Below, piece after piece: positions 14,545-57,579 of a stretch of DNA of 64,000 nt. The position numbers and the translations under genes were made by a program. Each line of letters starts with the position of its first letter. The stretch's first letter is position 1. The notes beneath the pieces were generated by a model, which was given only the letters and a program-made list of their open reading frames with translations, made no database searches and was not told the origin of the DNA. Origin of the DNA: an uncultured Planctomycetales bacterium (GTDB lineage: Bacteria > Planctomycetota > PLA2 > JAEUHO01); the NCBI GenBank assembly GCA_964586025.1, contig CAZPGF010000001.1:29544-93543 (forward strand), written 5' to 3'.

Positions 14545-15624
14545 ATGGACCACCCGACGGATGGGCCGGTGGCTGGGCGTCGATCGTCGACGCGCGCGAC
14601 GATCATGGCGACCGCGCTGTGCGGGTGGCTCGGGTGCGTGACCGCCGGTGCCGACGAGCCGAAGGGCGCGACGTTTCGCGAACCGCAACTCGGACTCTCC
14701 GCGACGGGCCCGAGCGGTTGGCGCGTCGCGACCCAGGGAACGGCGCCCACCGAGTGGACGCGCCTGGCGACGTGGTTCGAGACGGGGAATCCTGCGGAAG
14801 CGGTCCTGAGCGCGCGTCGTCGTTCGGCCATCGACGTGCAGGCGCTGCAGACGCGTGTTCGCGACGAGTGGTCCGCGTCGAAGGAGATCACCGTCGTCGG
14901 CACGCGCTCCGTCGAACCGACCCCGACCGCGCCGATCGGCCAGGTGATCGTCGATGCCACCTACGTCGTCCGCCCGAAGCCCGCCGCGGGCGCCGATCCG
15001 ACCGTGCCACCGCCGCCGGTGCCGTGGAGGATCCGGGCGACCTACTGGCTCGCGCCGCGTGGCGAGGTGCTGCTCTACGCGAAGGCCCCGCAGGCGCAGT
15101 GGGCGCGCTTCGAACCGCTCCTCAAGCAACTCGAGACGAGCGTCGCGTTCGTCGGAGCGGAGTCGGCGGCCGAGCCGGCCGGCTCCGGAACCTTCCGCGA
15201 CGAGAAGAACGGCTTCGCCTGCCGCTACCCCGACGGGTACTCGGTCGCGCTGCCGGCCCAGCGCAACCACATCGTGCAGTTCGCCGCGATCGACGCGGAC
15301 GCGCCGTCGTTCGACGTCTACGTGGTGCCGTGGGAGCGTGCGCTCGACGATGACGTCGCGCGGACCCAGTCGTTCTACGAGAACGAACAGGCGGCCGAGA
15401 CGAGCACGCACCCGTTGACGCTGCTCGGACAGGAGGCGACCCGCCTCGAGGCGCGGGCGCGGATCGGCGGCCGCGACCTGCTGCTGCTGACCGTCTTCGC
15501 GAAAGTCGGGTCGAACCGGGTCTTTCGAATCAAGGCCACGGCCCCGGTCGGTCGAGAGGGAGAACTGCGCCGCGCCCTGGATGCGTTCCTCGGCGGGTTC
15601 ACCCTGATCCCGACCGCGCGCTGA
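14545..15624 (+). CDS. secreted hypothetical protein, possible tandem PsbP/DUF1795-like modules
   Basis: ATG at 14545. Hydrophobic N-terminus (ATIMATALCGWLGCVTAGA) with a possible lipobox. Two similar ~150-aa halves. Confidence 0.5.
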   Translation: MDHPTDGPVAGRRSSTRATIMATALCGWLGCVTAGADEPKGATFREPQLGLSATGPSGWRVATQGTAPTEWTRLATWFETGNPAEAVLSARRRSAIDVQALQTRVRDEWSASKEITVVGTRSVEPTPTAPIGQVIVDATYVVRPKPAAGADPTVPPPPVPWRIRATYWLAPRGEVLLYAKAPQAQWARFEPLLKQLETSVAFVGAESAAEPAGSGTFRDEKNGFACRYPDGYSVALPAQRNHIVQFAAIDADAPSFDVYVVPWERALDDDVARTQSFYENEQAAETSTHPLTLLGQEATRLEARARIGGRDLLLLTVFAKVGSNRVFRIKATAPVGREGELRRALDAFLGGFTLIPTAR

Positions 15625-15783
15625 CGCCCTGAAAAGGCCGGTCGTGGGCCGCGTGTCCACGAATCAGGACGCCTCCCTCCGAGCGACGTGGGGGAGGTCC
15701 GCTCAAGCGCCCTTCGTTCGGCGGCCGATAGGGCCGCGGGTCCGCCGTCCGCCCGGACGGGTCGGAGCACCGGAGGGCGTTCC

Positions 15784-17085
15784 ATGCAGTCCCGCAAGGC
15801 TTCGCGACGGCTCCGCGACGAGCGGGGCATGGTCCTCGTGTGGGTGAGCCTCTGCCTGGTCACGGTCGCCGGGATCATCGTGGCGTCGATGGGACGCCAG
15901 CAGGCTCTCGAGGGCCTCTCGGAGTTCGAGTCCGCCTCGCCGGCCCACGCCCGGGACGTCGCCGAGGCGGGCATCGTGGACACGCTGGCGTGGTTCCGCC
16001 GGCAGACCGATCAGCCGGTCGCCGCGTTCACGCCTCGCCGCGACCTCACGCTCGACCCGCCGATCAACGAGACCGACGACCCGACCCGCGGACTCATCCG
16101 CTCCTACGAGGTCGCTCCGCGACTCTGGGCGCGTTACGAAGTGCTGATCGGCCGCGAGGCGGAGTCGTTCACCGACGAGAACGGCAACGGTCGCTTCGAT
16201 GCGGGCGAGGAGTTCGACGACGCGAACGGCAACGGTCGTCGTGACGAGGCGCTCGGCGTCCGCGACGTCACGGAGCGGCGCGGTGAGACCGGCAACGGGA
16301 TCGTCTGGCGCATCGAGAGCCGCGGCTCCGTGTTCCGCCGCATCGACCCGACGATCCCGCTCGGCGAGGGCGTCAACGCCCGCATCTCCGAGGCACGTCT
16401 CGCGACCGAGATCCGGCGGATGGCGATCAACATGCCGGCGTCGGCGGCGATCTGCGCGGCGCGCGGCGACGGAGTCACCATCGGCGCGCGCACCCGCATC
16501 GCCGGTGGTCCCGGGGCGGGGATCGCGTACGCGTCGGGCACCGGGTCGGCGCTGCTGCTCACGGGCGCCCAGGTGACCGGGAGTCCCGCGCACACCGGGA
16601 TCCCCGGGCTCGACGTCGATGTCGAGTCCGTCTTCGGCACCGATCTCGCGGGGGTGCGCGCCGCGGCCGGCTTCGTGACCGACGACGTCGCGACGCTCCC
16701 GTTGCCGCTCCCGTCGGCCAGCCTCACCGTGTTCGAAGGCAGCCTGACGTTCAACGAGAAGCGTCCGCTGCGCGGAACCGCGATCCTCGTGGTCACCGGC
16801 GACTGCACGATCGAGACGGGCAGCAACAGCTTCTTCAACGGCGTGCTGTGGGTCGGCGGCAACCTGACCGTGCGGGCCCCGACCCTGCTCACGGGAACCA
16901 TCGTCGTCTCGGGCAAGGCCGACCTCCGCGGGCTCGGCGGCGACCACGTGGAGGTGCAGCAGGACGACGAGGTGGTCCACCGCCTGCTGCAGACCTTGGG
17001 CCAGTACCGCTTCGCCAAGGCCATTCACCGCGTCGAGGGGGAAGACGCTCCGCGTCGACTCTCCGGCGAAGGGGGAGGTGCGTGA
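15784..17085 (+). CDS. PilX/GspK-like minor pseudopilin-type protein
   Basis: N-terminus [15 protein letters not shown]|MVLVWVSLCLVTVAGIIVASM resembles PilX/GspK (no Glu at +5). Contains DENGNGRFDAGEEFDDANGNGRRDE Ca-binding-like repeats. GGAGGG sits 6 nt upstream of ATG 15784. Confidence 0.6.
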   Translation: MQSRKASRRLRDERGMVLVWVSLCLVTVAGIIVASMGRQQALEGLSEFESASPAHARDVAEAGIVDTLAWFRRQTDQPVAAFTPRRDLTLDPPINETDDPTRGLIRSYEVAPRLWARYEVLIGREAESFTDENGNGRFDAGEEFDDANGNGRRDEALGVRDVTERRGETGNGIVWRIESRGSVFRRIDPTIPLGEGVNARISEARLATEIRRMAINMPASAAICAARGDGVTIGARTRIAGGPGAGIAYASGTGSALLLTGAQVTGSPAHTGIPGLDVDVESVFGTDLAGVRAAAGFVTDDVATLPLPLPSASLTVFEGSLTFNEKRPLRGTAILVVTGDCTIETGSNSFFNGVLWVGGNLTVRAPTLLTGTIVVSGKADLRGLGGDHVEVQQDDEVVHRLLQTLGQYRFAKAIHRVEGEDAPRRLSGEGGGA

Positions 17086-20000
17086 TGTACCGCCGCGCGT
17101 CGGGCTTCAGTTTCATCGAGATCCTCATCGCTGCGGGTCTCGTCGCGATCGCGTCGATGGCGGCCGCAGCGCACGTGACCCGCAGCGCGCAGCGTTCCGA
17201 CTGGGCGCAGGACCGCATCTTCGCGCGTCAGAAGGCCCTCTCGATCCTCGCCGAACTCCGCGCGTACGTGGAGGGCGGCGACGGCGAGGTCGCGGCGGAC
17301 CTCGACGGCTTCGACGACGGCGTGGCATGGCGCCCGAACCTGACGATCCAGCCCGATCCGAACGATCCGGGCGCATTCCTGCATCCGGGGCATCCGACGT
17401 CGGCGAACGTCGAGAACGAGGGCGTCTGGGCGTGGCAGCGCCAAATCTCCGTCCGGCGTTTCCCGAGCGTCAACACCCGCGACCTCCGGATTTGCACGGT
17501 GCGCGTGTTCCGCCGCCGCGTCGGAGACGTCGATCCCGGTGAACTGATGGCCGAGGTATCCGGCGTCATCCGCACCCTGGGCGACGCGTTCCCGAGCACC
17601 CAGGTCTACGACGTCTACCTCCTCGCGCTCGACAACGTGCCCGGCTGGTGGGTGTTCATGGACGCGATCCAGCCGTTCGTCGAGGCGACCCTCTCGGATC
17701 TCGAGTCCCGCAATCCCGGCCTGCGATTCCGCACGCACTGGATCACCAAGGCGGGCTTCGGTCGAAACGAGGAGTACGCGCCGTACACGAACGAGACGCG
17801 CATCAGCACCGACAACACGCCGTGGGCGTACGTGTATCCGGGGCGGATGCCGGCCGACTCCGCCGCCCAGCGCTACTACGTCGCGCACCGATTCGGTGGT
17901 CGCGTGAACCTCGACGGGGAGATCACGCCGAGCTTCTACAACGACCTCGCGCCGATGGAGCCCTACACCGACACGAACGGCAACGGTCAGCGCGACGCGG
18001 GCGAACCGTGGGACGATCTGGACGCCGACAACACCTGGGACCGCGGCAACCCCGTGCCCTACGCGCTCGCGGACATGCACAACCACTGCATGCGCAGCCC
18101 CGATGAGGTCGCGCGCTTCGAGCAGCGCGTCGCGGTGGGCCAGGAAGACGCCGAGGTGCCGACGTGGCGCATCCTCCTGGATCGGATGATCGCGATGCCG
18201 GATCGCTACCACAACGCGATCCTGATCAACCTCCACGGCGAGCTCCTTCCGATGCCGGCGGTCCGCAACTACAGCGACGCTGCGAAGATCCCCGACCTCC
18301 GTCCCGGTTGGCGCGCCGTGACGCACCCCGAGCGCCTTCGCTCGGTGCGGGTCGCCGGCGCTCCGGCCTCGTCGCAGGAGATCGCTTGGCGCGTGTACGC
18401 CTACAAGACGTCGTGGTCCGGCACGGCCGGCGCCGAGGCCCTCACGTCGCAGGAGGAACCCTTCGTCGACGCCAACCTGAACGGCATCTACGACGACGGC
18501 GAGGCGTACGACGACTGGAACGGGAATGGGTTCCGCGACGAGGGCATCCCGATCCACATTATGATCCCCGGCGGCCGCTTCGATCAGTCCGTCAACATCG
18601 GTTCGACGCCCTCGCTGACGATCCAGTGCATCTCGGGTGGCATCGACGCCAACGGCGACGGAACGGTCGAGGACTACGCGAACTGGGCCAACGCCGCGCG
18701 ATACCCCGACGCCTTCACGGATGTCAACGGAGACACCCGGCGTCAGCGCGCCGAGGCGTACCTCGACCTGAACGGGAACGGGACGCGCGACGTCGATGAG
18801 CCGTTCAGTGACCTGGACGGGGACGGGGTCTACACGGCCGTCGACGAGCCGCTGACCGCGGACTACGACGGCGACGGGATCCTCGACCGGGCCGGTCCGG
18901 AGGAGACGTACACGGACGTCAACGCCAACGGCCGCTGGGACGCCGCCGAGCCCTACCTCGACGTGAACGGCGACGGGACTCGCAACGGACCGGCCGCCTC
19001 ACCGGCGCCGCTGTGGCGGCCGTGGGACCCGCTGACCGACGACGCGACCAACGCGTCGGTCCTCGCCGACTACGTCTACAACTACGGCGAGCCGTTCCTC
19101 GATCTCGACGGCGACTCGGTGTGGGATCCTGCCGAGCCGCTCGTGGACGGCAACGCCAACGGCGTCCACGACGGAGGCTTCCGCCGCGGTGAGATGTGGT
19201 ACCTCGTACGCTACGACGACGAGGGCACGTCGCTCCTCCTCCACGGAACGCCGCTCGAGACGCCGCGCACGTCGTCCGGGCGCGGCCTGTCGTCGACCCG
19301 ACGTCTGTACGAACTCGACTACATCCCGTGCCCGACGCCGACGAGCACGTCCGCCGGCGGCGATCGCTTCGCCAGGAACCTCTACTCGACGAGCAGCCGC
19401 CCGAAGAACACCGCGCGTTGGCGCATCGCGATGTCGCCGACGGCGATCCGCGACGGGTTCGCGTCCGGCGACGCGATCGACCGCGTCGTGCGTCTCGAGA
19501 CGCGTTTCGGGCGCGACCGGACGACCGGCACGATGTGGCCGACGCGCTGGCAGCCGGCGAACAAGAGCGCGTCGTTCACGTGGTACACCGACTCCGTCGA
19601 GGACGTCCCGTTCAGCGAGCGATACCAGTTCATGGGGGATCCGCGGCACATGCCGTACATGGACCTCGACCGACACGGGGAGACGAGCCCGAACGGCTAC
19701 AACTGGTTCTTCGACGACTTCACGACGGGGGCCGGCAACGTCTACGACGACTGGCCGGCCTTCGACGGAGCCCGTCTCCGGAACTCGTGGCGCGGCAACC
19801 GCGGCAGTTCGCTCGACGTGCCGCGTCTGATGTCGTGGTTGCGGTACGCGCTCGTCCGCAACGAGGCGATCTACACGACGCTGACGGGCTTCTCGTACTA
19901 CTACCTGTCCGTCGGCGGGGACATCGGGTACGACGTCGACAACGGGTTCGCGAACAGCATCCCGATGGACGGCGCCCCGTTCGGTCTCACCGGCGACGTG

Positions 20001-21203
20001 TTCGAGAACACAATCACCGACGGCAACGGGACGAGTTCGATCCGCGGCAGCCTGAAGTTCGTCCGGAGCAACGACGGCACCGCGACGAGTTATCGCGACG
20101 CGGGCGGCTACTGGTGGAGCAAGCCGTGGATCGGCGAACTCTTCCCCGACAGCGCCTACGTCGACCAGTGGGCGGAGTGGGGCAACCTGCGCGCCGAGGC
20201 CTCGACGAACGCCGGAACGTTCCGCCAGATCCGTCGCGGGGAGATCACCACCTCGCAGCAGCCGAACGGCACGCAGCTCATCAACACCTACGCGCGGCTC
20301 GCCGAGGAAGGCAGCACGTCGCTGTTCAACATCGGTTCGTCGTCGTCGACGTTCCATCACCAGTACGCCGACGGGCGCACGGGTGGCCTGGTCGAGGACG
20401 GCCCGCAGCTTGCGGCGAACTACAACTTCCCGCTGCCGAACCGCGCCGCGATCAGCCGCCCGTTCGCTCTCAACGTGAACTACGACGGCTCGGTCGGCGA
20501 CGAGTTCTCGTTTACCACGGAGTTCCCGCGCTTCAGCGCGTCGGTCGTCCGCCGCTTCTTCGATCACGAGTTGGGCACGATCGGCAGCGCCCTCGTGCGC
20601 CTGCGCGCGCCCGGGACCAACCCGCGCGGCGGCTATGTCGTGGTGAACGGCCTGGACCGCACGATCGAGAGCGGCTCGGCGTTCATCGCCCGGTACAGCA
20701 TGCTGTCGCTGATCCACAGCTACTTCGCGGGCGGCGTCAGCGATCCGAACCGGATCCGCCAGCTGCCGCGCGTGCAGATCCGGACGCCGACCTTGCTGAC
20801 GGAGATCGACTCGCCGTCCACGATCCCGGTGTCGTGGTCGATCCAGTGGAGGCGATGGGACGGCTTGAAGTACACGACGAACTACCCCGACGACTTCGCG
20901 GAGAACGAGGCGGACCTGATCTACGTGCTCTCCTACAGCAAGGACGGCGGCGCGACGTGGCTCAACATGATGGACGAATCGCCGGCGACGCTCGGCGAAC
21001 TGCCCTGGGACGACGACGCCGGGACGCCGGACGCCTCCCGCACGCTCGTCGACTCGGCGCCGGCGGCCGACGAGACTTACCTCTGGGACACCCCCGCCGC
21101 GAAGCTGCCGAAGGGGTCGTATCGGATCCGCGTCGAGGCGTATCGCCGCACCGAGCCGCTGCACTACGCACAGCACATGGAGAAGATCTATGTCAATCGC
21201 TAG
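17085..21203 (+). CDS. giant (1372 aa) prepilin-type N-terminal cleavage/methylation-domain protein with Ca2+-binding Asp-rich repeats
   Basis: MYRRASG|FSFIEILIAAGLVAIASMAAA is a class III signal (Gly-1, Phe+1, Glu+5). ATG overlaps the upstream stop (TGATG). Long extracellular region with many D-x-N-x-N/D-G-x-x-D repeats. Confidence 0.7.
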   Translation: MYRRASGFSFIEILIAAGLVAIASMAAAAHVTRSAQRSDWAQDRIFARQKALSILAELRAYVEGGDGEVAADLDGFDDGVAWRPNLTIQPDPNDPGAFLHPGHPTSANVENEGVWAWQRQISVRRFPSVNTRDLRICTVRVFRRRVGDVDPGELMAEVSGVIRTLGDAFPSTQVYDVYLLALDNVPGWWVFMDAIQPFVEATLSDLESRNPGLRFRTHWITKAGFGRNEEYAPYTNETRISTDNTPWAYVYPGRMPADSAAQRYYVAHRFGGRVNLDGEITPSFYNDLAPMEPYTDTNGNGQRDAGEPWDDLDADNTWDRGNPVPYALADMHNHCMRSPDEVARFEQRVAVGQEDAEVPTWRILLDRMIAMPDRYHNAILINLHGELLPMPAVRNYSDAAKIPDLRPGWRAVTHPERLRSVRVAGAPASSQEIAWRVYAYKTSWSGTAGAEALTSQEEPFVDANLNGIYDDGEAYDDWNGNGFRDEGIPIHIMIPGGRFDQSVNIGSTPSLTIQCISGGIDANGDGTVEDYANWANAARYPDAFTDVNGDTRRQRAEAYLDLNGNGTRDVDEPFSDLDGDGVYTAVDEPLTADYDGDGILDRAGPEETYTDVNANGRWDAAEPYLDVNGDGTRNGPAASPAPLWRPWDPLTDDATNASVLADYVYNYGEPFLDLDGDSVWDPAEPLVDGNANGVHDGGFRRGEMWYLVRYDDEGTSLLLHGTPLETPRTSSGRGLSSTRRLYELDYIPCPTPTSTSAGGDRFARNLYSTSSRPKNTARWRIAMSPTAIRDGFASGDAIDRVVRLETRFGRDRTTGTMWPTRWQPANKSASFTWYTDSVEDVPFSERYQFMGDPRHMPYMDLDRHGETSPNGYNWFFDDFTTGAGNVYDDWPAFDGARLRNSWRGNRGSSLDVPRLMSWLRYALVRNEAIYTTLTGFSYYYLSVGGDIGYDVDNGFANSIPMDGAPFGLTGDVFENTITDGNGTSSIRGSLKFVRSNDGTATSYRDAGGYWWSKPWIGELFPDSAYVDQWAEWGNLRAEASTNAGTFRQIRRGEITTSQQPNGTQLINTYARLAEEGSTSLFNIGSSSSTFHHQYADGRTGGLVEDGPQLAANYNFPLPNRAAISRPFALNVNYDGSVGDEFSFTTEFPRFSASVVRRFFDHELGTIGSALVRLRAPGTNPRGGYVVVNGLDRTIESGSAFIARYSMLSLIHSYFAGGVSDPNRIRQLPRVQIRTPTLLTEIDSPSTIPVSWSIQWRRWDGLKYTTNYPDDFAENEADLIYVLSYSKDGGATWLNMMDESPATLGELPWDDDAGTPDASRTLVDSAPAADETYLWDTPAAKLPKGSYRIRVEAYRRTEPLHYAQHMEKIYVNR
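17965..19180 (+). repeat. protein-level array of thrombospondin-type-3 / EF-hand-like Ca2+-binding repeats inside the giant pilin-like gene
   Basis: Repeated motifs DTNGNGQRDAGEPWDDLDADN, DANLNGIYDDGEAYDDWNGNGFRDEG, DVNGDTRRQRAEAYLDLNGNGTRDVDEPFSDLDGDGVYT, DYDGDGILD, DVNANGRWDAAEPYLDVNGDGTRNG and DLDGDSVWDPAEPLVDGNANGVHD. Confidence 0.5.
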
Positions 21204-22200
21204 CTGCTCGTCGCCCACGCGCGGGGCCCAACGCGGCTTCACGTTCCTCGAGACGACGCTCGTGCTCGCGATGACCACGCTGCTTGCGTGGGTCGTCGAG
21301 AGGACGTTCACCTCGACGACCGACGCCGATCGTCATCTGGCGGGGGTGCAGAAGTCGACGGATCGTTGTCAGGGCCTGTCGTACCGGATCCGCGAACTGG
21401 TCAGCGCGAGCCGCCGGCTGTTCGGGCGGGACACGATCGGCGAGGGATATCGCGATGCGCTGCAGGTGGACCGCGTCGTGCCGGTCTCGAACCTGCGTCT
21501 GCCGGTGATCGATCCCGTCGGGCGACTCGTCCCCGACGAGACGGGCGTACCGACGACGGGCAACTGCCTCCTGTTCGTGGGGGAGACGGATCCGGCCGAA
21601 GTCGTCGTGGATGCGACAACCGGCGCGACCCGGTTCATCGACATGTACCGGTTCGTCTACGTGGTCCCCGTCGTCACCGGTCGGTTCGTCACGACCCGGC
21701 AGCCGCGGACGGCGGCCCGGGACCTGGTGATCTGGCGCAGCACCGCCTACCCCAGCCACACGCAGATCCTGGGCCTGTCGAGCGCCGCCCACCGGGAGGC
21801 GGCGGTGAGCGCCCTCGTGACCTCCTACGGCTGCAGGTTCGCGTGGGATCCGAGCGGCGCCGTGGACGACAGCTTCTTCGCGATGGACGAGTTCGGTGCG
21901 CTCGCGACGTCCCCCGAGGCCGACATCGAGATCGAAGAGGATCCGGACGTCAGCAGCGTCGGTTCCATCGTCGCCTCCGGCCTGCAGCTCGCGCCGAGCG
22001 ACACCACGCGCGAGTCGTACGACCGACGGGCCTGGATGACATCCGATCTCGGCTGGTGGCCTAACGGCTTCGAAACGAAGATCGTCGGCGGCAGCGGGTC
22101 CCGAAAGATCTGGATGCGGCTGACGCTGGAGGCGCCGAGCGGCGGGCCGTCGACCGTCGTCCACGCATCCCAGGTGATCGCCTCCGCCCACGATCTCTAG
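21190..22200 (+). CDS. pseudopilin-like protein (prepilin-type N-terminal domain)
   Basis: MSIASCSSPTRGAQRG|FTFLETTLVLAMTTLLAW is a class III signal with Glu+5. Overlaps the upstream stop by 14 nt. Confidence 0.65.
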   Translation: MSIASCSSPTRGAQRGFTFLETTLVLAMTTLLAWVVERTFTSTTDADRHLAGVQKSTDRCQGLSYRIRELVSASRRLFGRDTIGEGYRDALQVDRVVPVSNLRLPVIDPVGRLVPDETGVPTTGNCLLFVGETDPAEVVVDATTGATRFIDMYRFVYVVPVVTGRFVTTRQPRTAARDLVIWRSTAYPSHTQILGLSSAAHREAAVSALVTSYGCRFAWDPSGAVDDSFFAMDEFGALATSPEADIEIEEDPDVSSVGSIVASGLQLAPSDTTRESYDRRAWMTSDLGWWPNGFETKIVGGSGSRKIWMRLTLEAPSGGPSTVVHASQVIASAHDL

Positions 22201-54179: not shown

Positions 54180-55141
54180 ACGTTCCCGCCGAGTCCGGCT
54201 CGAACGACTCGTCCGCGCCGTGGTACGCGGAGGGGCTGCGGTTCCGCTGCACCGCGTGCGGCGCGTGCTGCACGGGCGAGCCCGGACACGTCTGGGTGGA
54301 TGACGACGAGATCCGGCGCCTCGCGCGAGCGCGAGGGCTCTCCGCCCGCGCGTTCCGGGCGCGGTTCGTACGGCGCGTCGGCAAGCGTTGGTCGTTGAAG
54401 GAGAAGGAGAACGGGGACTGCGTGTTGCTCGAAGGCGGTCGTTGCACGGTGTACGAGCACAAGCCGACCCGATGCACGACGTTTCCGTTCTGGCCCCCGG
54501 TGCTCGCCTCGCCGTCCGCCTGGGAGGAGGCGGGCGAGCGATGCGAGGGGATCGGCCAGGGCGATCTCTACGATCGCGAGGCCATCGAGCAACTCGCCGC
54601 GGGCGATCCACGCCCGCTCGTGGAGCGGCATGCCCGCCCGCCCGATCGGCCGGTGCGGAGCCGACATGATGGGTCCGACGAGTCCGCGCGCGTTCCGGAC
54701 GACGCCGGCGACGACGTCGATTGGCCCGCCGCCTTCGCCGCGCTCGAACGGCTCTACGACGACCTCGATCGCGAGCTGCCGCGCACCGGAATGACCTGTG
54801 CCGCGAGTGGGCGCTGTTGCGACTTCGACGCGTACGGTCATCGGCTCTACGTGACGACGCTCGAGGCGATGTGGTTCTTCACCTGCCTCGACGGGCGTCG
54901 CAACGACGACGCCCGTGCTTGTCCGGCGTGGGGCGCCGATCGACTCTGTCACGAGCGACGCGGTCGCATGCTCGGTTGCCGGACCTACTTCTGCGGTCCC
55001 TACGTGGGCATGACGCCGGAGGACGTGCATCCGCGCTACCACGACCGCCTGAAGGCGCTGCACGATCGATTCGGCATCCCGTACGCCTACAGGGACGTCC
55101 GCGCCTGGGCCGCCGAGATGCGCCCGGCAGCGGGGGAGTGA
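54176..55141 (+). CDS. YkgJ-family (CxxCxxCC) putative Fe-S/zinc-cluster protein, duplicated module
   Basis: CTACGACCTGEPGHVWV...CTVYEHKPTRCTTFPFWP repeated as CAASGRCCDFDAYG...CRTYFCGP. ATG overlaps the kinase stop (ATGA). Confidence 0.6.
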   Translation: MNVPAESGSNDSSAPWYAEGLRFRCTACGACCTGEPGHVWVDDDEIRRLARARGLSARAFRARFVRRVGKRWSLKEKENGDCVLLEGGRCTVYEHKPTRCTTFPFWPPVLASPSAWEEAGERCEGIGQGDLYDREAIEQLAAGDPRPLVERHARPPDRPVRSRHDGSDESARVPDDAGDDVDWPAAFAALERLYDDLDRELPRTGMTCAASGRCCDFDAYGHRLYVTTLEAMWFFTCLDGRRNDDARACPAWGADRLCHERRGRMLGCRTYFCGPYVGMTPEDVHPRYHDRLKALHDRFGIPYAYRDVRAWAAEMRPAAGE

Positions 55142-55299
55142 CGGCGAGTTCGGGAGCGGCGCGGCGCGCGGGTCGGCGCTCGGACCGTGCGGCACGGCGG
55201 CGATCGCCACCGCCTCCGGCGGGGAACTCCACGCAGGGGGCGGTGTCCAACCGGGGCGCCGGACGAACCGTCCCCGCCCGCCCGGCTCGGAGGCATCCC

Positions 55300-57579
55300 A
55301 TGTCGCTCCCTCGTTCCTTCGGTCAGCGCTTTGGACCCGCGCTCGTCGCGTTGCTCGCCGCGTTCGCGGCGGTCGCGTGGGCGGCGCCCGCCCGGGCGAA
55401 CGGCATCCTGACCGTCGATCGCACCGACGTCGTGACGCCGCCCACGGGCCGGCGGCCGACCCATCCGTGGCGCCACCCGTCGGTCACGCTCAAGGACCAC
55501 CGGGTGTCGGCCCGTCTGAAGGATCGCGTCGCGGAGGTCACCGTCGAGCAGGTGTTCCGCAATCACACCGATCGGCAGTTGGAAGGCACCTACCTGTTCC
55601 CGCTGCCCGACGGCGCGAGCGTCAGCCGTTGGGCCATGACGATGGGCGGCAAGATGGTCGAGGGCGAGATCCTCGAGGCCGCCAAGGCGCGCGCGATCTA
55701 CGAGAGCATCGTCCGCGCGCGGCGGGATCCCGGCTTGCTCGAGTACATGGGGCGCGGGCTCTTCCAGGCGCGTGTGTTTCCGATCGAGCCGCGCGCGGAT
55801 CTCACGATCCGCCTCACCTTTCAGCAACTCCTGCCCGAAGACGGCGGCACGATCGAGTTCCGCTACCCGCTGAGCACGGATCGGATGAACGCGACCCCGG
55901 TCGACGGCGTGACGATCGACGTGACGATCCAGAGCGACGTGGACATCAAGGCGATCTACAGCCCGTCGCACGCGGTGGACGTGACACGCCGAGGGGACCG
56001 CGAGGCGCGCGTCGGCTACGAGCGCCATGGGCAGCGCCAGGACAAGGACTTCGTGCTCTACGTCGGGCGCAGCGAGTCCGACGTCGGCTTCTCGATGCAG
56101 AGTCACAAGGCGCCCGGCGAGGACGGCACGTTCCTGATGGTCCTCGCGCCGCGGACCGAGGTGAAGGCCGAGGAGGTCGTCGCGCGCGACGTCGTCTTCG
56201 TGCTCGACACGAGCGGATCGATGGCCGGCCCGAAGATGCGGCAGGCGCAGGACGCCCTCACCTACGGCATCCGCACGCTGGGGCCGAAGGACCGGTTCAA
56301 CGTCATCGGCTTCGCGACGGGGCTCCGTCCGTTCCGCGACGCGCTGCACGATGCGACCGACGAGATGAAGGAGGCCGCCGTGCGCTGGGTCGGAGCGCTG
56401 GCGCCCGCCGGCGGGACGAACATCCACGATGCCCTGCTCGCCGCGCTGGCGATGCGCGGCGACGAGCGCCTGTTCGTCGTCGTGTTCGTCACCGACGGGC
56501 GCCCGACCGTCGAGGAGCGCGATCCGGACCGCATCGTCGAGAAGGTGAAGGCGGTCAACTCGAACAACACGCGGGTGTTCACATTCGGCGTGCTCGGCGA
56601 CGAGCGTGCGGACGTGGACGTGCGCCTGCTCGACCGCATCGCCGAGGTCACCCGCGCGTCCCGTGACTACGTCCACGTCGGCGAGGAGATCGAGGTCGTC
56701 ACGAGCCGCTTCTTCCGCAAGGTCCAGCAACCCGTCCTGACCGATGTCACCCTCGAACTCGGCGAGGGCGTGAAGGACGTGTTTCCGCGCACGCTGCCCG
56801 ATCTCTTCGCGGGTTCGCAGATCGATGTGATGGGGCGCTACGCGACCGGCGGCGAGCGGACCATCCGTCTGCGAGGCAAGGTCGGCACGCGGGAGGTCGT
56901 CCACGAGTTCCGAGCCAACTTCCGGCAGGCGGAGGACGCGGGGTACCTGCCGCGCCTCTGGGCACAGCGGAAGATCGGGTACCTGCTGGATCAGATCCGA
57001 TTGCACGGCGCGGCGAACGAACTCATCGACGAGATCGTCCGACTCGCGACGCGCTACGCGATCGTCACGCCCTACACGTCGGGGCTCGTCGTGGAGGAGG
57101 GCGAACTCGGACGGATGCCGGCCGCCCGTGGCGAGATGCTCCGCGATCTCGCCGAGCGGCGAGGCTTCGACACGGATCGCAGCGGCGGCGCCCCGGGTGC
57201 TCCCCCGAGCGCCGCGCGCGACGCGGCCGACAGCGCGGTGATCGAGAGCCTGAAGGGGGCCACCGCCGAGGACGCGCCGGCCGACGCGGGAGCGGCCTAC
57301 GGTCGGGGCCGACTCGATGCGGAGCGAGCGAAGGACATGCGCGAGGCGGCCGCGTCGGTGCGCCGCGTCGATGATCGCATCTTCCGCCGCGATGCGGAGA
57401 ATCGGTGGGTCGATGCCGCATGGCGTTCCGACGCCACGCCCACATCGATCGAAGCGTTCTCCGAAGCGTACTTCGAGCTTCTGACCCGTCATCCCGCGCT
57501 GGCGCGGGTGTTCGCGCTCGGCGACGCCGTGCGCTTCATGCTGGACGGTCGCGCCTACGAGATTCGCCCCGCCCCGTAG
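55300..57579 (+). CDS. secreted VIT-domain plus von Willebrand factor A domain protein
   Basis: Signal MSLPRSFGQRFGPALVALLAAFAAVAWAAPARA. VIT-like N-terminus, then vWA with MIDAS DTSGSM...GGTN...TDG. GGAGG RBS. Confidence 0.75.
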   Translation: MSLPRSFGQRFGPALVALLAAFAAVAWAAPARANGILTVDRTDVVTPPTGRRPTHPWRHPSVTLKDHRVSARLKDRVAEVTVEQVFRNHTDRQLEGTYLFPLPDGASVSRWAMTMGGKMVEGEILEAAKARAIYESIVRARRDPGLLEYMGRGLFQARVFPIEPRADLTIRLTFQQLLPEDGGTIEFRYPLSTDRMNATPVDGVTIDVTIQSDVDIKAIYSPSHAVDVTRRGDREARVGYERHGQRQDKDFVLYVGRSESDVGFSMQSHKAPGEDGTFLMVLAPRTEVKAEEVVARDVVFVLDTSGSMAGPKMRQAQDALTYGIRTLGPKDRFNVIGFATGLRPFRDALHDATDEMKEAAVRWVGALAPAGGTNIHDALLAALAMRGDERLFVVVFVTDGRPTVEERDPDRIVEKVKAVNSNNTRVFTFGVLGDERADVDVRLLDRIAEVTRASRDYVHVGEEIEVVTSRFFRKVQQPVLTDVTLELGEGVKDVFPRTLPDLFAGSQIDVMGRYATGGERTIRLRGKVGTREVVHEFRANFRQAEDAGYLPRLWAQRKIGYLLDQIRLHGAANELIDEIVRLATRYAIVTPYTSGLVVEEGELGRMPAARGEMLRDLAERRGFDTDRSGGAPGAPPSAARDAADSAVIESLKGATAEDAPADAGAAYGRGRLDAERAKDMREAAASVRRVDDRIFRRDAENRWVDAAWRSDATPTSIEAFSEAYFELLTRHPALARVFALGDAVRFMLDGRAYEIRPAP

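Follow-up and report, generated by a model that had tools for sequence, protein, structure and literature searches.

What are the acidic loops that crowd the middle of a giant pilin-like protein of an uncultured Planctomycetales bacterium, and what do they do there? The protein is encoded in a 64,000-nucleotide (nt) stretch of contig CAZPGF010000001.1, referred to here as the window. A first-pass annotation of this DNA had proposed that the loops are calcium-binding repeats of the thrombospondin type 3 (TSP3) or EF-hand kind, which would form a calcium-gated extended fibre on a pilin anchor. We favor, with moderate confidence, a reading in which the 13 loops are helix-less EF-hand-type Ca2+-binding modules with a structural role, grafted onto a compact, giant modular minor pilin. 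Calcium binding by the loops, an extracellular or tip location and a stabilizing rather than regulatory role are what we infer from the analysis described below.

The reading frame was established from composition. GC content in the window is 66 to 76%, and many spurious long open reading frames (ORFs) occur in other frames. Codon-position GC singled out one long coding frame on the + strand, the ORF at 16848..21203 (+), in which third-position GC is 0.86 and second-position GC is low. The true start of the giant gene is most likely the ATG at 17085, inside this ORF, and a GGAGG sequence lies about 8 nt ahead of it. In the resulting protein of 1,372 amino acids (aa), the motif D-x-[DN]-x-[DN]-G was found 10 times, whereas 2,000 residue shuffles gave 0.2 on average and never more than 3. 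Without the requirement for Gly at position 6, 13 motifs were observed versus 2.4 in shuffles, and the longer form D-x-[DN]-[GA]-[DN]-[GS]-...-EP was observed four times versus none. The 13 loops start at aa 296, 311, 462, 477, 521, 546, 561, 576, 593, 611, 626, 673 and 688, all of them within aa 296 to 700 (nt 17970 to 19184). Thus, the annotated count of at least eight acidic loops in about 400 aa (17965-19180, corresponding to aa 294 to 699) was borne out by 10 strict and 13 loose motifs, and the four loop strings quoted there were recovered at aa 296, 561, 626 and 673. When a strict form of the motif was scanned over all six frames of the window, it appeared six times in the frame of the giant gene, twice in that of the gene upstream and nowhere else. 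Tandem Repeats Finder detected no tandem repeats in the DNA; the loop copies are thus old, and recent duplication was rejected.

We then considered the conservation of the loops. A search of 5.8 billion proteins retrieved more than 600 relatives of the giant protein, most of them 1,360 to 1,390 aa long; names, identities and conservation given for relatives refer to the best 120 of these, and loop conservation was measured over 85 aligned full-length homologues of 47 to 75% identity. Each of the 13 loops is found at the same place throughout these 85 sequences. Positions 1, 3, 5 and 9 carry an oxygen-donor residue in 85 to 100% of the homologues, and in at least 96% if position 9 of loops 561 and 576 is set aside. 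Asp1 is present in at least 97% in 12 of the 13 loops, the exception being loop 576, where Glu is found in 64%. Depending on the loop, D9 is conserved in 52 to 98% and G6 in 42 to 98%. Glu12 is nearly invariant (98 to 100%) in loops 296, 462, 546, 561, 611 and 673 and occurs in less than 10% in the other seven. Most loops form pairs, and four of the six pairs consist of a leading loop with Glu12 followed by one without it. The consensus of the 12-residue loop is D1-x-N3-G-N5-G6-x-[W/R/Y]8-D9-x-x-E12; together with a P-[F/Y]-x linker, it forms a repeat unit of 15 residues. An aromatic residue at position -2 relative to each D1 is conserved, as is an aromatic at position 8. The x positions are mostly variable, their commonest residue reaching 20 to 60%. 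Positions 1, 3, 5, 9 and 12 agree with the ligand positions of the EF-hand pattern, and the concentration of conservation at these positions would support metal binding.

The location of the loops became apparent upon comparison with a sister clade. Proteins of this short clade, of about 1,130 to 1,180 aa, are homologous end to end with those of the long clade, to which the protein studied here belongs, and lack only three inserts (Table 1). In the region of insert 2, they show more than 70% gaps over aa 456 to 474 and 477 to 486. The short-clade protein P0097 is 43% identical to the giant protein over aa 7 to 541 and 46% identical over aa 698 to 1372. The inserts hold 12 of the 13 loops; loop 521 alone lies in the shared scaffold, where at least 90% of the 120 sequences, those of the short clade among them, retain G518, G519 and D521. 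Insert 3 consists of six consecutive loops (D546, D561, D576, D593, D611 and D626), a 45-aa spacer with one helix (aa 657 to 667) and a final pair (D673 and D688). The loops thus come in runs of 2, 2, 6 and 2, the longest comprising six units. Among 74 related loci, giant proteins of the long clade have 6 to 11 strict loops and those of the short clade 0 or 1, truncated or fragmentary ORF calls excepted. Since the short clade joins the N- and C-terminal halves directly, the insert is not a connector between domains.

Structure prediction was consistent with this arrangement. An AlphaFold2 model covering aa 1 to 1200, built on the 120-sequence alignment, reached a mean predicted local distance difference test (pLDDT) score of 91.7 and a predicted template modeling (pTM) score of 0.84, and this pTM over 1,200 residues suggests one compact body. 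In ten-residue blocks, the loop regions had pLDDT values of about 88 to 97, yet they were assigned by DSSP almost entirely to coil, with single beta-bridges about 15 residues apart. The region of insert 3 modeled alone (aa 536 to 704; pLDDT, 84.8) was likewise mostly coil and showed one beta-bridge at or beside the residue two before each loop start. The models point to a globular scaffold bearing surface loop modules of 29, 31 and 159 residues rather than to an extended fibre.

We next asked whether the loops belong to a known calcium-binding family. The first-pass annotation had suggested a motif scan with TSP3, Calx-beta and EF-hand profiles and had regarded a lack of matches combined with predicted disorder as evidence against its proposal. 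The scan indeed gave no match; disorder was not predicted, pLDDT being above 90 across most loops. With the whole protein as the query, Pfam and NCBIfam returned only subthreshold N_methyl, PilV and GspI matches at the N terminus and no calcium-binding family. No profile match to HemolysinCabind, FG-GAP/VCBS, TSP_3 or TSP3_bac was found in the giant protein. EF-hand_1, EF-hand_5, EF-hand_6 and EF-hand_7 gave nothing at an E value of ≤1 on the whole protein and nothing at ≤10 on isolated fragments, for which the sole calcium-family entry was Dockerin_1 (E = 2.9; 8.6 bits versus a cut-off of 22.9). When PDB sequences were searched, once with the family profile and once with the insert, only the N-terminal helix of geopilin (E = 0.15) and a chance match to a HIT protein were returned, and a Foldseek search of the PDB with the 1,200-residue model yielded nothing at E ≤ 0.001. 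The PROSITE pattern PS00018 matched none of the 13 loops, its ligand positions passing in six; failures occurred mainly at position 8 (R, W or Y in place of an aliphatic residue) and at position 13 (Pro). Membership in the EF-hand, TSP3, dockerin, RTX or FG-GAP families is therefore unsupported.

The loops nevertheless resemble canonical EF-hand loops in their length of 12 residues, in ligand-capable residues at positions 1, 3, 5, 9 and 12 and in Gly at position 6. Unlike these, they lack the entering and exiting helices: no helix-loop-helix architecture was found in either model, where DSSP assigned coil and isolated beta-bridges, the residue at position 8 is R, W or Y rather than aliphatic, and 7 of the 13 loops have Pro at position 13, the expected start of the exiting helix. 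The N-type motif of TSP3 repeats, DxDxDGxxDxxDNCP, has a 15-residue period and ligand spacing of 1, 3, 5, 9 and 12. With TSP3 repeats, the loops share the tandem acidic DxDxDG-type design and the coil with little regular secondary structure; unlike them, they have no cysteines or disulfides and no profile or Foldseek match, and they are set in short runs into a globular scaffold instead of forming a long wire. Of the proposed identity, the EF-hand-like character thus held at the level of the motif, and membership in the TSP3 family was not supported.

The closest correspondence is with the Dx[DN]xDG class, which is defined by Asp, then D/N/S/T, then D/N and Gly, with further acidic ligands downstream; this motif binds Ca2+ in a near-identical manner in at least 16 folds, and the additional ligands always follow the motif (PMC3123361). 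The linear motif was found in 10 exact matches and in 3 that deviate only at Gly6. Potential ligands downstream of it were found as well, with position 9 being ligand capable in 85 to 100% and Glu12 present in 98 to 100% in six loops. Hence, the loops are like this class in having the motif with downstream D9 and E12 outside a helix-loop-helix; they differ from it in their head-to-tail arrangement with a 15-residue period, the 3-residue linker and the usual Asn at positions 3 and 5. A precedent for the proposed calcium-stabilized inserts in an otherwise complete fold is a subtilisin in which a 25-residue irregular insertion is stabilized by four Ca2+ ions (PMC3123361).

The 15-residue repeat is not confined to this family. 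A phmmer search with aa 541 to 700 against 1.84 billion cluster representatives (E ≤ 0.001) retrieved 389 representative proteins matching the insert 3 region, mostly outside the giant-pilin family. Scaffold motifs of the family were present in only 4 of 148 newly listed matches, and some short fragments are also family inserts. The repeat proteins outside the family are 139 to 6,225 aa long, and many of their N termini resemble signal peptides or lipoprotein signals. A loop spacing of 15 dominates the listed matches (500 cases versus 62 for the next commonest), and pooling 499 units gave the consensus E-P-[FY]-x-D-x-N-G-N-G-x-[WY]-D-x-[GA]. The top match, P0132, a protein of 4,813 aa with 26 loops, outscored true family members (E = 3e-56). 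P0199, ADQ81091.1 of Paludibacter propionicigenes, contains 48 consecutive units of EIAGDTNGDGKITAP, which align in register with the loops of the giant protein. Its array was matched in Pfam by EF-hand_5 (E = 2e-71), EF-hand_1 and EF-hand_6, in each case over the loop part of the profile only. Four other repeat-rich matches, three of them among the closest in sequence, had no Pfam match on their repeats, and the Pfam copy used contains no family for the 15-residue repeat. The array in the window thus falls within a broad group of EF-type loops that lack helices, follow one another head to tail and repeat every 15 residues; its link to the EF-hand is indirect.

Several features of these repeat proteins were noted in passing. 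Arrays of up to 48 units occur in large proteins, hundreds of them and without relation to one another (examples are P0132, P0161, P0173, P0199, P0217 and P0234). P0217 has a Cys-containing variant of the repeat (ETQEDCDGNGVPDVC) that looks nearer to TSP3 repeats. One repeat protein matched Por_Secre_tail, a type IX secretion sorting domain, with an E value of 0.0015, below the Pfam cut-off. A general link between the repeat and pilins was rejected: a regular expression detected a pilin-like N terminus in 3 of about 144 nonfamily matches, and two to three more were recognized by eye.

The host of the array was proposed to be pilin-like, and its prepilin-type N terminus supports this. The sequence MYRRASG/FSFIEILIAAGLVAIASMAAAA (MYRRASG/FSFIEILIA) is a class III signal: a short basic leader ends in Gly at -1, a hydrophobic residue follows at +1 and Glu stands at +5, within a hydrophobic helix of about 20 residues. 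At least 90% of the 120 relatives retain this Gly (G7) and this Glu (E12). Pfam N_methyl scored 17.5 bits (E = 0.003; cut-off, 21.2) and NCBIfam IV_pilin_GFxxxE 11.8 (cut-off, 16.3), and PilV (E = 0.005) and GspI (E = 0.06) were both far below their cut-offs. Several homologues have a precomputed PF07963 match and were named prepilin-type proteins by their sources. In the model, a 55-residue alpha1 helix (aa 10 to 64) is followed by a beta-sheet with strands at aa 94 to 98, 117 to 124, 134 to 143, 153 to 163 and 173 to 180. The best local Foldseek match was the XcpV/XcpW minor pseudopilin pair (probability, 0.66; E = 0.46, not significant), and the other best local matches were minor pseudopilins or pilins as well, none of them significant.

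All named relatives among the best 120 come from metagenome-assembled genomes (MAGs) of uncultured Planctomycetota, and most relatives are 47 to 75% identical to the query. In the GTDB species genomes, 226 loci for the giant gene were found, nearly all labeled Planctomycetota. The family is undescribed in the literature returned by our searches on planctomycete giant pilins and calcium-repeat pilins. The homologue P0014 has a precomputed match to PF27309.1, which may be a newly built family relevant to the giant protein; no family of this type was returned when the window's own protein was searched against our local Pfam copy. The C-terminal scaffold has near-invariant motifs among the 120 relatives (NTARW, GDPRH.PY.D, GFSYYY, STFHHQ and ISRPF), which look like a functional site. 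This scaffold had no Pfam match and no PDB sequence match, and aa 702 to 1200 had no Foldseek match at E ≤ 0.001.

Known proteins offer two comparisons. Modular type IV pilins, such as PilB and PilC of Streptococcus sanguinis, CofB of enterotoxigenic Escherichia coli and GspK of type II secretion systems, also combine an N-terminal pilin module with a bulky extra module and are encoded among minor-pilin-like genes, with a tip location expected. The von Willebrand A module of PilB binds metal, and modular pilins carry metal-dependent adhesion modules (PMC8179133). The survey by Raynaud et al. (2021) singles out a multidomain modular pilin of 860 residues (PMC8179133). Unlike these, the giant protein is longer, at 1,372 aa; its extension of about 1,190 aa has no recognizable domain or solved-structure match. 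PilY1/PilC proteins are similar in size (about 1,000 to 1,200 aa), in their association with minor pilins and in an EF-hand-like Dx[DN]xDG calcium site, which controls pilus function. In contrast, PilY1 is not a pilin and has one or two calcium sites versus the 13 loops here, and its C-terminal beta-propeller (PF05567) gave neither a Pfam match nor a PDB sequence match in the giant protein.

The giant gene is the middle one of three. The upstream protein has a PilX/GspK-type N terminus, ERG/MVLVWVSLCLVTVAG (ERG/MVLVWVSL...), with no Glu at +5, and the [ER][RK]G-hydrophobic motif is kept in 35 orthologues; no Pfam or NCBIfam family matched this protein. The motif G[FLV][TS]xxE of the downstream protein is kept in 41 orthologues, and matches to Pfam N_methyl (E = 0.15) and NCBIfam GspH (E = 0.11) were both weak. 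The upstream stop and the ATG of the giant gene overlap in TGATG (17083-17087), and the giant and downstream genes overlap by 14 nt (21190-21203). These overlaps, together with the GGAGG, suggest translational coupling and a fixed stoichiometry. Of the 74 related loci, which come from species-representative genomes, the majority in either clade have the triad; some of the 74 are truncated or lack a detectable upstream or downstream match. Four MAGs have three paralogous copies each (L008/L011/L028, L009/L029/L049, L018/L021/L027 and L010/L023/L024), all of the long clade, and two other MAGs have two short-clade copies each. That all copies in the four three-copy MAGs are long clade suggests that the loops were gained before the paralogues multiplied.

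The upstream protein carries loops as well. Its two-loop module, DENGNGRFDAGEEFDDANGNGRRDE, is present in long-clade loci and is deleted exactly in the short-clade locus L003. Across the 74 loci, long-clade upstream genes have one or two loops, with the exception of L049 (10 loops in the giant gene and none upstream) and of unusable ORF calls; short-clade upstream genes have no loop in most loci and one loop in five. Thus, two subunits of the presumed complex would carry the loop module in the same lineage. As a separate observation, the C-terminal part of the upstream protein (16700-17082) is repetitive (GSNSFFNG.L.V.G.L...P..L.G), which hints at a beta-solenoid; a search of the PDB with a profile of the upstream family gave only a weak match to a DUF3494-type ice-binding beta-helix (PDB 7dc5; E = 0.11), which was not used as evidence.

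Can these data be explained otherwise? The simplest objection would be that the motifs are products of codon usage at 70% GC (GAC, AAC and GGC) or of a wrong frame, as the composition of the window and its many spurious ORFs might suggest. We rejected this explanation and consider its probability negligible: codon-position GC is as expected, the shuffles and the six-frame scan set the motif apart (the only other occurrence being in the upstream gene), the protein has more than 600 homologues with the loops kept in 85, and the 15-residue repeat occurs in low-GC organisms too, such as Paludibacter. Another rival is the calcium-stiffened stalk, a TSP3-like wire that would hold a distal head off the pilin anchor as a calcium-gated fibre. 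The period and ligand spacing are those of the TSP3 N-type motif, the loop regions are almost all coil in the models, and proteins with up to 48 units in a row could use them as spacers. However, the loops of the giant protein are split over three insertion sites with no run longer than six, the scaffold is intact without the inserts in the short clade, whose halves are directly joined, and the pTM score indicates a compact body. Moreover, TSP_3 and TSP3_bac gave no match, the inserts (aa 293 to 321, 456 to 486 and 541 to 700) contain no Cys, and Foldseek found no match in a PDB that includes thrombospondins (1ux6). The fibre proposed in the first-pass annotation is thus not supported, and we regard it as very unlikely.

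Two further explanations accept the loops as real and concern the metal itself. The loops might bind none, with D-x-N-G-N-G forming Asx turns and Asn-Gly beta-turns in a compact, hydrophilic coil decoration that is conserved purely for folding and might act as a spacer or shield the protein, sterically or antigenically. Asn-Gly pairs typically form turns, Asn prevails over Asp at positions 3 and 5, no calcium-binding profile matched the protein, the frequent Arg at position 8 could neutralize D9 or E12, and AlphaFold2 confidence is high without any ion. Turns alone hardly explain the conservation of Asp1, D9 and Glu12 at EF-hand ligand positions, and the related Paludibacter array is scored as EF-hand loops by Pfam. 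The Dx[DN]xDG motif, which tolerates Asn at the second and third ligand positions, binds Ca2+ in a near-identical manner in at least 16 folds (PMC3123361). We therefore consider metal-free turns improbable, if less so than the stalk. Somewhat more credit, at the level of a minority view, is due to loops that bind Ca2+ for adhesion or ligand capture by bridging acidic polysaccharides, extracellular DNA, sulfated glycans or minerals. C-type lectins and some bacterial adhesins use bound Ca2+ in this way to bridge ligands. The loops lie at surface sites of a probable tip protein, they are also present, in the same clade, in the neighboring tip-type protein, large proteins with signal-peptide- or lipoprotein-like N termini commonly contain the repeat, and the seven loops without Glu12 would leave a coordination position for a ligand oxygen. 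Modular pilins with metal-dependent adhesion modules are known (PMC8179133). Against this stand the absence of direct evidence for any ligand, the conserved aromatics at positions -2 and 8, which appear to pack and form beta-bridges in the model as fits a structural role, and the much stronger conservation of the scaffold, which can do without loops and is the likelier carrier of function.

The preferred reading, structural Ca2+-binding modules on a compact pilin, has its own difficulties, and the following observations all weigh against it. Seven of the 13 loops lack Glu12 and three lack Gly6. With Asn outnumbering Asp at positions 3 and 5, each site has less negative charge, and position 8 is often Arg. 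No TSP3, EF-hand, Calx-beta, RTX or FG-GAP profile matched five isolated fragments at E ≤ 10, the PDB sequence search with the insert alone returned nothing relevant, and Foldseek gave no PDB match at E ≤ 10 for the isolated insert model. AlphaFold2 places no ions, and we found no calcium measurement in the literature for any member of the 15-residue repeat class. Export and pilus incorporation of the giant protein are predicted from the N-terminal motif. Finally, no secretion ATPase, platform protein, secretin or prepilin peptidase was detected among the scanned ORFs of the window or in three related loci; whole genomes were not searched.

With these points taken into account, structural Ca2+-binding modules still provide the best explanation. 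Two-loop modules of 30 residues would have been inserted at three surface sites of a conserved compact scaffold, the body of a giant modular minor pilin produced from a translationally coupled unit together with a PilX/GspK-like protein and a small pilin. After leaving the cytoplasm, the protein would have access to calcium; each loop would then wrap one Ca2+, and the loaded, coil-like inserts would turn into rigid, protease-resistant surface elements on the presumed tip complex of a type IV filament. A structural role is the most likely one because the aromatics flanking the loops are conserved and appear to pack and because the scaffold of the sister clade works without loops. A role in calcium-bridged adhesion or as an inter-subunit clamp is a live alternative, and it would fit both the seven loops in which position 12 is left open and the matching loop pair of the partner protein.

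Table 1. Coordinates of the giant gene, its parts and its partner genes in the window
Feature	Position	Strand	Remarks
Giant pilin-like protein gene	17085..21203	+	1,372 aa; conserved family, uncultured Planctomycetota MAGs
Pilin module, aa 1-180	17085..17624	+	Class III signal, alpha1 helix, five-strand beta-sheet
Insert 1, aa 293-321 (29 aa)	17961..18047	+	Loop pair D296, D311; absent in short clade
Insert 2, aa 456-486 (31 aa)	18450..18542	+	Loop pair D462, D477
Single loop D521 (GGIDANGDGTVEDY)	18645..18683	+	In scaffold stretch common to both clades
Insert 3, aa 543-701 (159 aa)	18711..19187	+	Missing as a block in short clade
C-terminal scaffold, aa 702-1372	19188..21200	+	Strongly conserved; 46% identity to short-clade P0097 (aa 698-1372)
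Upstream partner gene	15688..17085	+	465 aa from GTG 15688, or 433 aa from ATG 15784
Acidic loop pair, upstream protein (DENGNGRFDAGEEFDDANGNGRRDEAL)	16174..16254	+	Same two-loop module as giant protein
Downstream partner gene	21190..22200	+	336 aa; prepilin motif QRG/FTFLE

The genes surrounding the triad are housekeeping genes (gyrA, M48 peptidase, rsmG, GCS2-CBS and hisS). Just upstream of the triad, the gene at 14545-15624 (+) encodes a protein of about 340 to 360 aa with a lipoprotein-like N terminus (MATALCGWLGC) and no family match; L001 and L003 have a gene without a recorded Pfam hit at a similar position. Farther away, at 54721-57576 (+), lies the gene for a 952-aa protein that has VIT and von Willebrand A domains and no evident link to the triad.

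Calcium sites like these loops are familiar, which makes the original finding a modest one. A more far-reaching interpretation, which we put forward only tentatively and hold to be rather doubtful, is that the triad encodes an undescribed kind of type IV filament tip complex, specific to an uncultured Planctomycetota lineage and encoded up to three times per genome. An adhesin or enzyme head of about 1,190 aa would then be fused directly to a minor pilin and take the place of a separate PilY1-like protein, the loop modules that one clade has in two subunits out of three would serve as a calcium-dependent latch for folding or as an inter-subunit clamp that locks the complex after export, and the repeat would represent a widespread calcium-binding family for which Pfam has no model yet. 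Two by-products of the analysis are of more use than the loops themselves. With a profile for the 15-residue repeat, many large proteins of secreted or surface-bound appearance could be annotated. The host is a conserved giant modular pilin, present in several copies per genome, with a confident AlphaFold2 model and no detectable relative of solved structure, and the short clade provides a natural loop-free control for the effect of calcium-loop grafts on such a protein.

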